From Pseudomonadales bacterium (GTDB lineage: Bacteria > Patescibacteriota > Microgenomatia > UBA1400 > PJMF01), in NCBI GenBank assembly GCA_020632255.1, contig JACKFX010000001.1, positions 184,216-248,215 of the forward strand: a DNA stretch of 64,000 bases. The letters are read 5' to 3'. Position 1 is the stretch's first letter. Each line of letters starts with the position of its first letter. Below are positions 13,877-15,496 of the stretch, piece after piece. Below the pieces are notes generated by a model. The model made no database searches. It was not told the DNA's origin and worked only from the letters and a program-made list of their open reading frames with translations. The position numbers and the translations under genes were made by a program.

Positions 13877-13969
13877 AGGTACCTTTCTGACGATATGTCT
13901 TGTTCATCCCTATTCTACACTATTTTTTGTTTGTCGAAAGGTTTATCAAGAAATGTGGCTCATTTGGCC

Positions 13970-13998
13970 TTGGCAACTGAAAATAAATACAGTATAAT
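13970..13998 (+). promoter_or_regulatory. sigma70-like promoter for tRNA-Asp
   Basis: TTGGCA (13970-13975), 17 bp spacer, TATAAT (13993-13998). The tRNA starts about 25 nt downstream. Confidence 0.5.
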
Positions 13999-14023
13999 TA
14001 GCTCTCGTTAACAGACGTTACGT

Positions 14024-14099
14024 GGACCCGTGGTGTAGTGGTTAACATGCTTCCCTGTCACGGAAGAGATCGCCGGTTCGACTCCGGTCGGGTTCGCCA
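14024..14099 (+). tRNA. tRNA-Asp (anticodon GTC)
   Basis: Cloverleaf by eye: acceptor GGACCCG/CGGGTTC, anticodon loop CTGTCAC, T-arm GGTTCGACTCC, encoded CCA. Confidence 0.85.
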
Positions 14100-14106
14100 T
14101 AGTATG

Positions 14107-14132
14107 AAAAAAGACCGTTAGGTCTTTTTTTT
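14107..14132 (+). terminator. intrinsic terminator after tRNA-Asp
   Basis: AAGACC-gtta-GGTCTT followed by TTTTTTTT. Confidence 0.7.
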
Positions 14133-14164
14133 ATACTATGCTGATCTCAGTCCTGAATTGAGCC

Positions 14165-14283
14165 CCACGTTCTGCCACATGGTGAGTGACACCTGTCACG
14201 AACCAGGTTAATGCATGCGAGCTTCACAAAGTAGAAGTAAATAGTAGCGAGTCGTAGATCCCGGTCGGGTTCGCAAGTTTTAT
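14165..14283 (+). pseudogene. decayed tRNA-Asp-like duplicate (pseudo-tRNA)
   Basis: Three patches colinear with tRNA-Asp: catggtgagtga (D-arm-like), CCTGTCACG (anticodon arm, exact 9-mer) and CCGGTCGGGTTCGC (T-arm/acceptor, exact 14-mer). About 60 nt of unrelated sequence sits between the last two. Confidence 0.4.
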
Positions 14284-14294
14284 TTTATATTGAT

Positions 14295-14866
14295 ATATAA
14301 CTTGATTTCCCCGCGGCTCTGCCGCGCGGAACCTTGTAGGAAGGTGCGGAAACCCTCGGTTTCTGCGACAATTGAGGGATGAGTCCAGTCAAGACCTTCC
14401 ACAACGCGTACGATACGCACTACCACATCGTCTTTCCTGTTAAGTATCGAAAAAGTTTGCTAACCAATGAAATTCTGCTCGCGATAGTGGAAATCGCGCA
14501 AGAAATCAGTGAACGGTACGACATCGAATTTGAAAAGATTGGTACCGATCAAGATCATATCCATATACTCGCCTCATTTGCCCCAAAATACTCAGGAAGC
14601 GATGTCGTACGAATCTTTAAAAGCATCACTGCCAAGCAACTGTTTGCGCGATTTCCTCACCTTCGAAAAGAATTATGGGGAGGGGAATTTTGGAGTGATG
14701 GATTTTATCTGGCTACGGTTGGCGAGAGGGGGAACTGGAAAGCAGTTGAACGATATGTCGCCAACCAAGGAAAGACGATGAATTTACCCCAACAACTCCA
14801 ATTACTCACCTAACTGACTGGACTCATCCCTCGTGATACCCCGCTGGCTCTGCCGCGGGGAAATTC
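14295..14866 (+). mobile_element. IS200/IS605-family insertion sequence, tnpA only (IS200-like)
   Basis: Single Y1 HUH transposase ORF flanked by imperfect subterminal hairpins with a shared core: left ccccGCGGCtctGCCGCGcgg (14309-14329), right ccccgctGGCtctGCCgcgggg (14839-14860). The right end is fused in-frame into a truncated MFS gene. Boundaries are approximate. Confidence 0.7.
14379..14813 (+). CDS. tnpA: IS200/IS605 family Y1 (HUH) transposase TnpA
   Basis: 144 aa. HxH motif (DHIHIL), catalytic Y region (GFYLATVG), N-terminal YHIVFPVKYRK, typical of IS200 TnpA. Confidence 0.85.
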   Translation: MSPVKTFHNAYDTHYHIVFPVKYRKSLLTNEILLAIVEIAQEISERYDIEFEKIGTDQDHIHILASFAPKYSGSDVVRIFKSITAKQLFARFPHLRKELWGGEFWSDGFYLATVGERGNWKAVERYVANQGKTMNLPQQLQLLT

Positions 14867-15496
14867 ATTAGTTTTGAATAATTCTCTTATTCCCTCTTTT
14901 GTTTGTTTTATGTAGTTTTGCCATGAAAAAACATAACTATCTATTGGTGGTTCTGAAAGCCAAAAGCTAACAATCAGTGCAAGTAACTTCATAATGGCTA
15001 AGGCAATAAAAGGTAAACCAGGATTCATTTTGTACATGAATCCACCTATAATGCTAGCAATAGCCAATGTCAGCATTTTTATTGATGAAATATTACCAAG
15101 AACTTTTTCATATTTAGATTCTTCTTTGTTGGTCAGGAGTGAATCATAGATCAAAGCTTCATTTGTTCCTGAACTTAAAACTCCTCCAATTGTTGCAACC
15201 ATCACTCCTGAAGCAAGGATAAAAAATGAGTTTGCTAAACCCATTAACATATTTCCTAAGAACCCAAACAGAAATGAAAGCATTAGTGTTTTCTTTTTTC
15301 CAAGTAGATCAGCAATTGCTCCTGTAGGTATTTCTCCTACTACTGAAGTAATGATCATTACAGATTCTAGTAATCCTATGCCTGCATAATTTGTATATCT
15401 TAAATAAAAAAGTACCCAGATTGCAGCCCAAAACCAGCTATAGTCAAAAGCTGTAATTAAGTACATCAAAGTAATATTTTGTTTTTGTTTTTTCAC
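14810..15496 (-). pseudogene. MFS transporter, N-terminal half only (about 6 TM), truncated by IS insertion
   Basis: The 228-aa ORF has MFS-like TM helices. Its last ~20 codons (…EFPRGRASGVSRGMSPVS*) are translated from the IS right-end hairpin and the tnpA stop region. No C-terminal half is present downstream. Confidence 0.6.

Follow-up and report, generated by a model that had tools for sequence, protein, structure and literature searches.

Two covarying long-range helices connect the start and end of the transposase gene in a compact IS200-type insertion sequence

We analysed a 64,000-nucleotide stretch of contig JACKFX010000001.1 (positions 184,216 to 248,215; hereafter the window) and found in it an intact IS200-type insertion sequence (IS) of ∼571 bp. 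Its single gene, tnpA, is closed on itself by two long-range helices: H1, in which the gene start pairs with the gene end, and H2, which lies within the coding region. Both helices are maintained by compensatory changes in relatives of the element. We tentatively favour the explanation that H1 and H2 fold the transposon DNA, when single-stranded, in such a way that its left and right ends are clamped together for the transposase TnpA. Control of tnpA at the RNA level is the rival that we weigh most closely, and we consider it unlikely.

IS200/IS605 elements serve as the model of "peel and paste" transposition by single strands, and the nucleases TnpB and IscB arose in them. To our knowledge, the cis-requirements recognized in these elements so far are two end hairpins, guide and cleavage tetranucleotides, and linker lengths. 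We retrieved 160 related loci for comparison; these relatives (loci numbered with the prefix L below) come overwhelmingly from metagenome-assembled genomes (MAGs) of the Patescibacteria type.

Results

The start of tnpA pairs with its end

The two arms of H1, GAGGGATGAGTCCAGTCA (14374-14391) and TGACTGGACTCATCCCTC (14815-14832), lie 423 nt apart and are complementary at 18 of 18 positions. A T14373·G14833 wobble lengthens the helix to 19 pairs. The 18-mer occurs at only two places in the window, and two matches were found in 0 of 100 shuffles. An initial annotation of the region had reported this perfect inverted repeat, and it is present exactly where it had been placed. The same annotation had both the start and the stop codon embedded in the repeat: the ATG does lie inside the left arm, but the TAA ends 1 nt before the right arm, with C14814 in between. 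The stop codon does fall within the right arm in many of the relatives.

H1 is not peculiar to the window copy. In many relatives with 55–95% TnpA identity, 11–24 nt around the ATG are complementary to a segment of the stop region, and the sequences involved are quite different. Measured from the last base of the stop codon, the 5′ end of the 3′ arm lies anywhere from ∼9 nt upstream to ∼16 nt downstream. The paired sequence is GAGCGGATGGGCGTTA in L126 and AGTGGTATGACACTGAAGC in L027, and the helix of L144 has 24 pairs. The perfect length of the window helix is equalled only by L120 (AGGGGCATGAACCTCACG, 18/18). The window copy, which the initial annotation had called unusually clean, is indeed the cleanest instance, but of a helix that is family-wide and accompanied by a second one.

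We scored the covariation of H1 in an ungapped alignment (A2) of 52 non-redundant arm pairs. With each pair anchored on its best register, which favours structure (the anchor is the ATG/CAT triplet only, and the covariation lies outside it), 70.6% of the cells were paired, versus 27–40% with slid partners, and the covariation score was 0.441, versus at most 0.116. Cells changed on both sides numbered 221, versus 93±8 in shuffles (0/500). The core of the helix spans −5 to +5, and three or four Watson-Crick pair types occur at each of positions −4, −3, −1, +3, +4, and +5. Cognate arms paired far better than arms swapped between loci. H1 is conserved as pairing, not as sequence. Because the pairing is kept by compensatory mutations in dozens of relatives, H1 is a genuine component of the element's structure; chance does not account for the repeat.

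H1 is missing from more distant relatives in Binatia, Atribacteria, Opitutales, and Legionella. Some of these, such as L021, L023, and L024 from Legionella, have their right-end hairpin directly at the stop codon. In several separate lineages (L006, L088, L097, L103, L106, L108, L134, L137, and L138), a G in the 3′ arm (...TCAGGCC...) stands opposite the A of the ATG, creating an A·G mismatch in the middle of an otherwise conserved helix.

Arms in inverted orientation that flank a whole gene might also be a site in double-stranded DNA, either bound by a dimeric protein or serving as the crossover sites of an invertible on/off switch of tnpA. After such an inversion, the promoter would read only a 5-codon open reading frame (ORF), judging from the sequence. 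We reject this reading, which is very improbable: the arm sequence differs completely among relatives while complementarity is kept, which argues for base pairing and not for protein recognition. Moreover, no recombinase is encoded, 18 bp are too short for homologous recombination, and tnpA has one and the same orientation, relative to the promoter hairpin of the left end and the TTGATT tip of the right end, in all aligned or printed loci that have a left end.

A second helix lies within the coding region

H2 (Table 1) recurs in 49 non-redundant relatives, in which synonymous third codon positions have undergone compensatory changes. Where a Val codon (GTC, GTT, or GTG) faces a Lys codon (AAG or AAA) or, in L018 and L019, where Val GTG faces Asn AAC, the pair is CG in 36 cases, UA in 9, GC in 2, and UG in 2, and is never unpaired. 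A second synonymous-site compensation links Ile (ATC or ATT) to Thr (ACG or ACA). In L022 and L120, amino acids have changed together, I→V on one side and M→T on the other. Double-sided changes affected 38 cells in all, versus 13±3 in shuffles (0/500).

RNAalifold, run on an unfitted MAFFT alignment of 34 full elements, recovered H2, both end hairpins, and a small left-end hairpin. It did not recover H1 from the same alignment because the 3′ arm of H1 shifts between sequences. H1 and H2 occur together in 43 loci and are both absent from distant relatives. Folding the window element as a single strand pairs both helices in the minimum free energy (MFE) and centroid structures, whether as DNA (z=−9.2) or as RNA (z=−5.2), in line with the pairing of the two repeat arms proposed by the initial annotation. 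Together, H1 and H2 zip both gene ends and loop out ∼330 nt. The coding sequence shows an excess of structure over synonymous-codon shuffles in the window copy (z=−3.3), L085 (−5.5), and L098 (−4.1), but not in all copies. Two further features of the window copy were rejected: a third nested helix (14471-14501 with 14644-14674) is not in the family consensus, and the exact 34/34-nt register between H1 and H2 is a coincidence, relatives differing by 7–15 nt. An Rfam scan of 13900-15100 at E ≤ 10 returned only the tRNA described below.

The helices could, in principle, be without present function, for example a relic of an ancestral palindromic element that captured tnpA, or a by-product of repair or template switching in folded single strands. 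Related subclades do without either helix, and the perfect 18/18 match of the window copy could reflect recent homogenisation. A relic would decay, yet the pairing persists across many sequences, including the synonymous sites of H2 and the coupled I→V/M→T changes, and the helix position is fixed across lineages of 55 to 95% identity. We therefore consider this explanation improbable.

The tnpA mRNA is predicted to be leaderless

A family TAnnnT box lies just upstream of the tnpA start. Among 58 helix-bearing relatives, T(−12) is found in 75%, A(−11) in 91%, and T(−7) in 89%, and TAnnnT is placed exactly 6 nt 5′ of the ATG in 42 of the 58; helix-less relatives are similar. TTGAAA or TTGGAA precedes the box of the family with a 16-nt spacing. 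No Shine-Dalgarno sequence lies at a usable distance from the tnpA ATG. From the family TAnnnT-N6-ATG layout and this absence, we predict that the tnpA mRNA is probably leaderless, starting at A14379. A small hairpin covers the predicted −35 and spacer, and its outer pairs covary (UA 24, GC 10, CG 5, and AU 4 at one; GC 23 and AU 20 at the other).

The host shows a similar tendency. A Shine-Dalgarno-like motif precedes only 5 of 32 large genes (31 of the ORFs of ≥250 aa and the 196-aa LemA ORF), and several have TATAAT 7–8 nt before the ATG. This suggests that the host leans heavily on leaderless or Shine-Dalgarno-independent initiation.

Single-stranded DNA or RNA?

The mRNA and the transposing top strand share one sequence, and thus the pairing as such cannot decide between DNA and RNA. 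The initial annotation had offered both levels, and we carry both forward; its proposal that a ribosome-binding site is sequestered falls away, since GAGGG abuts the ATG with zero spacing.

In the explanation that we favour, H1 and H2 would form in single-stranded top-strand DNA, the transposition substrate of the family. By drawing the two end hairpins together, the helices would create a single compact junction flanked by a short duplex. Such a junction would favour the synaptic complex of TnpA with both ends, and thereby excision and a stable circular intermediate. Closure of the mRNA over its start codon would also follow from this pairing; we regard it as a secondary effect or an alternative one.

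Five observations favour the single-stranded DNA, or read-through RNA at most, over the mRNA of the element itself. Pairs −5 to −1 of H1 covary as strongly as pairs +3 to +5. These upstream pairs, five to seven in number, precede the predicted transcription start and would be missing from the element's own mRNA. The covarying promoter hairpin likewise lies upstream of that start. Under selection, RNA helices usually put up with G·U much more readily than with A·C. G·T was no commoner than A·C in the cores of the two helices (16 vs 15 in H1, 13 vs 15 in H2, 29 vs 30 in total), which favours DNA over the element's own mRNA, with the reservation that these counts come from related, non-independent sequences. 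The distance from the 3′ arm of H1 to the right-end hairpin is fairly fixed (∼12–17 nt, read from printed sequences) while the distance to the stop codon varies, which also favours DNA. H2, deep in the coding region, has no obvious role in start-codon occlusion and is unexplained by it; this again favours DNA. In IS608, duplex DNA beside the single-stranded ends speeds cleavage by TnpA (PMC5027513), which makes a stem beside the ends plausible as a helper.

The RNA-level alternative holds that the helices act in the tnpA RNA, where the 3′ arm, once transcribed, closes over the 5′-terminal AUG or, in read-through transcripts from host genes, over an internal AUG. Transposase would then be made only by the first co-transcriptional ribosomes, or activation from outside would be blocked; both RNA ends may also be protected from nucleases. 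The arms do pair in the predicted RNA structures, as said above. The mean unpaired probability of the AUG was 0.83 in the first 100 nt and 0.45 in an RNA ending before the 3′ arm, and fell to 0.14 with the 3′ arm present and to ∼0 in read-through RNA. There is also precedent: tnpA of IS200 is strongly repressed by a stem-loop that hides its Shine-Dalgarno sequence (PMC4513863). In a host that uses so few Shine-Dalgarno sequences, structure at the start codon should matter greatly. Fold-back inhibition of read-through transcripts in IS10 and IS50 is a further precedent. Nevertheless, a partner 430 nt away is a poor block on co-transcriptional initiation, and the upstream pairs that it would lack, the absence of G·U enrichment, and the location of H2 all count against control through the element's own mRNA. 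RNA-level control is, in our judgement, unlikely, if by no means negligible.

The accessibility of the AUG and the IS200 precedent weigh against the single-stranded DNA clamp, and so do several other points. The start codon is central in H1 of every helix-bearing relative, as expected of a translational control element. A partial answer is that little else is free to vary: near the left end only the discriminator and the first four codons are, and near the right end only the stretch past the stop codon. Relatives of 55–66% identity lack both helices, so the helices are not essential to the family. The leaderless start is itself a prediction, and a simple promoter scan did not flag the window copy because its −35 is poor. 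In a DNA helix, the A·G mismatch that several relatives have at the A of the ATG does more harm than it would at the 5′ terminus of a leaderless RNA. In vivo, single-stranded DNA-binding protein would compete with folding. Finally, the literature reports no long-range pairing for IS608, ISDra2, or IS200. Probability not given to any reading named here covers unassigned ones, including action at the DNA and RNA levels together.

Taken together, these results point, still tentatively, to a DNA clamp. It is possible, and we propose it with some reserve, that a long-range single-stranded DNA fold, RNA-like and maintained by covariation, pre-assembles the transposon ends in a widespread IS200 subgroup, mainly of Patescibacteria-type genomes, and that this subgroup depends on the fold.

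The element is an intact, mobile IS200-type insertion sequence

The features of the element are collected in Table 1. The ATG of tnpA is at 14379-14381 and the TAA stop at 14811-14813. The product (MCB9800742.1) matched Pfam Y1_Tnp with E=6e-35 and the NCBIfam transpos_IS200 equivalog with 126.9 bits (cutoff 55). It is homologous to the solved ISDra2 and IS608 structures (E = 7e-20 and 1e-17 for IS608 and ISDra2), and H60-I61-H62 and Y126...Q130 align with their catalytic HUH and Tyr motifs. The profile score and these homologies bear out the IS200-like identity assigned initially. A REP-associated tyrosine transposase (RAYT/REPtron) was ruled out: the score against the corresponding model, NF047646, was 28.8 bits (cutoff 80), no dispersed hairpins were found in the window or in the flanks of ∼170 loci, and the gene is multi-copy.

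Table 1. Features of the IS200-type element (window coordinates).
Feature	Position	Strand	Basis or remark
Whole insertion sequence	14299..14869	+	Flank comparison of copies; left boundary ± ∼1 nt
Left-end tip/linker AACTTGATTT, ∼10 nt	14299..14308	+	Flank comparison
Left-end imperfect palindrome TTCCCCGCGGC-tct-GCCGCGCGGAA, C14327 bulged	14307..14331	+	Presumed TnpA binding hairpin
Small hairpin GCGGAAACC-ctc-GGTTTCTGC, 9 bp, over predicted −35/spacer	14346..14366	+	RNAalifold, covariation
Predicted extended −10, TGcGACAAT	14364..14372	+	Ends 6 nt before ATG; family TAnnnT box
H1 5′ arm	14373..14391	+	−6 to +12 around ATG; covariation in 52 relatives
tnpA, 144-aa Y1/HUH transposase (H60-I-H62; Y126-x3-Q130)	14379..14813	+	ORF, profiles, structural homologues
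H2 5′ arm CATCGTCTTTCCT (codons H-I-V-F-P)	14426-14438	+	13/13 pairing; covaries in 49 relatives
H2 3′ arm AGGAAAGACGATG (codons (Q)G-K-T-M, right after catalytic YxxxQ)	14768-14780	+	Pairing, RNAalifold
H1 3′ arm	14815..14833	+	Begins 1 nt past TAA stop
Right-end imperfect palindrome CCCCGC(T)GGC-tct-GCCGCGGGG, T14845 bulged	14839..14860	+	Direct repeat, compensatory changes
Right-end linker AAATTCATT, 9 nt	14861..14869	+	Flank comparison

We compared the boundaries of the window copy with those of L003, L005, L084, and L085 and of copies whose TnpA is identical among themselves (L163, L167, L169, L170, and L171). The common sequence runs from (A)ACTTGATTT (14299 or 14300) to ...GGGGAAATTCATT (14869). 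The initial annotation had called for other copies that would define the ends; these were found at other sites and fix them. A cluster member with 92% identical TnpA (P0122) was found on 22 contigs, where copies identical to each other occupy at least five different flanking contexts. The same element is thus present at different sites, which shows mobility. One Nomurabacteria contig carries three copies (L014, L016, and L017). There is only one copy inside the window, and the two contigs that encode the exact window TnpA (L001 and L002) represent the same locus. No target-site duplication was seen in the window or in the other flank pairs compared. The left flanks are T/A-rich and end in TAT, AAT, TAC, TTT, or TAA, with no single tetra- or pentanucleotide definable. 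As the tips, AACTTG... and ...TTCATT, do not form an inverted pair, the element has no terminal inverted repeats.

The other ORFs listed within the element are of 48 aa (14280..14426, minus strand) and 90 aa (14509..14781, plus strand, inside tnpA), and the readthrough tail of a flanking transporter ORF (14810..15496, minus strand) also overlaps it; none is big enough for tnpB or iscB. The region is a complete, probably active member of a distinct subgroup in the IS200 group of the IS200/IS605 family. By homology to the IS608 and ISDra2 TnpA only, it would transpose via a single-stranded circular intermediate.

Some identical copies mix flanks. L168 agrees with L163 in its left flank but not in its right one; in L169 and L171, it is the right flank that agrees with L163 and the left flank that differs. 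Either the copies have recombined or the assemblies are chimeric across the repeat. L017 (JACKGF010000001.1) has lost the left-end hairpin, and a terminator-like hairpin of the host adjoins its −35 region. It retains the promoter, gene, H1, and right end. L017 is thus an immobilised copy.

End hairpins and linkers

Two GC-rich hairpins (14309-14329 and 14839-14860) stand at the ends as direct repeats of each other on the same strand. Their coordinates and imperfection had been given correctly in the initial annotation; one base is bulged in each, C14327 on the left and T14845 on the right. Its suggestion that they are the TnpA recognition structures expected of IS200/IS605 elements gains support from their conservation with compensatory changes, which for the left-end palindrome holds in sets of 46 and 34 relatives. 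The conserved ATT immediately 5′ of the left hairpin may act as a guide, and the conserved ATA (TGATA, 14834-14838) before the right palindrome is another possible guide. The element terminates in ...ATT; its relatives end in TTGATT, TCATT, or TAATT.

The hairpin core has exact matches in the window only at the two IS ends. We found no solo hairpins or dispersed copies in the window or in the flanks of ∼170 loci, and no tnpA-less derivatives or solo hairpins among all retrieved loci. A scan of viral contigs for the core gave unrelated single matches only.

The left half of the left hairpin (14305-14317) is complementary at 13 of 13 positions to the right half of the right hairpin (14852-14864) because the two hairpins are near-identical palindromes. 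The minimum-energy DNA fold takes this pairing in place of the two local hairpins. Between the left-end and promoter hairpins, a purine block, GGAAGG/GGAAAG (14339-14344 in the window), is almost invariant in the family. Many relatives (L087, L091, L093, L097, L101, and L105 among them) begin with TATAATAC. Between this tip and the main left-end hairpin they have a mini-hairpin that covaries (CGCgtaGCG, CCCgtaGGG, or ACCgcaaGGT), which makes the linker ∼20 nt long. The window clade lacks the mini-hairpin, and its left linker is only ∼10 nt.

Neighbourhood and host

A tRNA-Asp region (14024-14099) lies to the left of the element. Its last 14 nt, CCGGTCGGGTTCGC (14084-14097, acceptor/T-arm), recur exactly at 14261-14274, ∼165 bp downstream and just left of the IS (0/100 shuffles). 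The repeat looks like an att-type scar left at the tRNA by an integrative element, or like a tRNA fragment. On the other side, a major facilitator superfamily (MFS) transporter ORF (14810-15496, minus strand) reads into the right end of the IS and matches only positions 2–179 of 347 of Pfam MFS_1, the N-terminal half. As read from the sequence, removing the IS would not restore a full MFS gene, since the left flank adds ∼26 codons and then a stop. The insertion must therefore have come together with, or after, a deletion or rearrangement.

The window has 32 ORFs that reach 250 aa or more, and 31 of them lie on the minus strand. The plus-strand GC skew is slightly positive overall, at odds with this gene-strand bias, and the two indicators of replication direction thus disagree. 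The source is a 262-kb MAG contig that NCBI labels Pseudomonadales. For a member of Pseudomonadales, the relatives of the IS, the rarity of Shine-Dalgarno motifs, a GC content of 42%, and the gene-strand bias all look out of place, and the label may be a binning or classification error.

Discussion

If H1 and H2 act in DNA, a conserved pair of long-range helices that ties the ends together would be a new cis element for IS200/IS605 transposons. It would raise the question of whether single-stranded DNA folding beyond the end hairpins controls synapsis. It would also be a cis-acting DNA secondary structure kept by compensatory evolution inside a protein-coding gene. If the helices act in RNA, they would offer a clear case of 5′–3′ closure of a leaderless bacterial mRNA as a dosage limiter. 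Either way, the family illustrates how small an autonomous transposon can become, with a promoter within the left end, a predicted leaderless mRNA, and structure written into the coding sequence. The two-helix fold may be what permits an autonomous IS of only ∼570 bp.

Comparison with known systems

The element resembles IS200 of Salmonella and IS1541 of Yersinia in being a single-gene IS with a Y1/HUH TnpA, subterminal hairpins, and no terminal inverted repeats. IS200, too, buries the region around the tnpA start codon in a helix (PMC4513863). However, the canonical IS200 TnpA is only ∼25–30% identical to the window TnpA, and at ∼571 bp the window element is shorter than IS200, whose 707 bp earned it the description of smallest fully autonomous IS (PMC4513863). 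IS200 has a ∼100-nt 5′ untranslated region, a strong Shine-Dalgarno sequence, a local stem-loop (nt 69–138), and an antisense RNA, art200. The window element, on the contrary, lacks a usable Shine-Dalgarno sequence and has a predicted leaderless mRNA; the partner of its start region is ∼430 nt off, past the stop codon, and a second helix lies within the gene.

With IS608 of H. pylori and ISDra2 of D. radiodurans, the element shares a homologous TnpA with aligned HUH and Tyr motifs. Another common feature is an imperfect palindrome with one bulged base at each end, the two being nearly identical and lying on the same strand. In IS608, the extrahelical T of the hairpin sets strand specificity (PMC5027513). 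At the right end, the linker measures 9 nt in the window element, as against 10 nt in IS608 (PMC3597680). The left-end linker of IS608 is 19 nt, and an 11-nt version is nearly inactive (PMC3597680); the window clade has ∼10 nt, while many relatives have ∼20 nt with the extra mini-hairpin. IS608 and ISDra2 additionally carry tnpB. Long-range pairing between the left and right ends of these two elements is not described in the papers available to us.

Fold-back in IS10 and IS50 is similar in that the start codon of the transposase is paired elsewhere in the transcript and transcripts from outside are not translated. Those elements differ in that the pairing is local and upstream, and in being DDE transposons that have no single-stranded DNA stage.

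RAYT/REPtron and TIRYT systems also have a Y1/HUH gene bracketed by inverted repeats or hairpins (PMC6006769). Unlike RAYTs, the window element has a Tyr motif of the class-1 Y-x3-Q type, hairpins that are direct and not inverted repeats, and a multi-copy mobile gene with no dispersed solo hairpins in the window or the ∼170 flanks. We found no description of a start/stop or long-range helix in the literature on IS200 elements. The element is an ordinary member of a known family; its apparently undescribed features are the two covarying long-range helices, the hairpin embedded in the promoter, and the leaderless layout.

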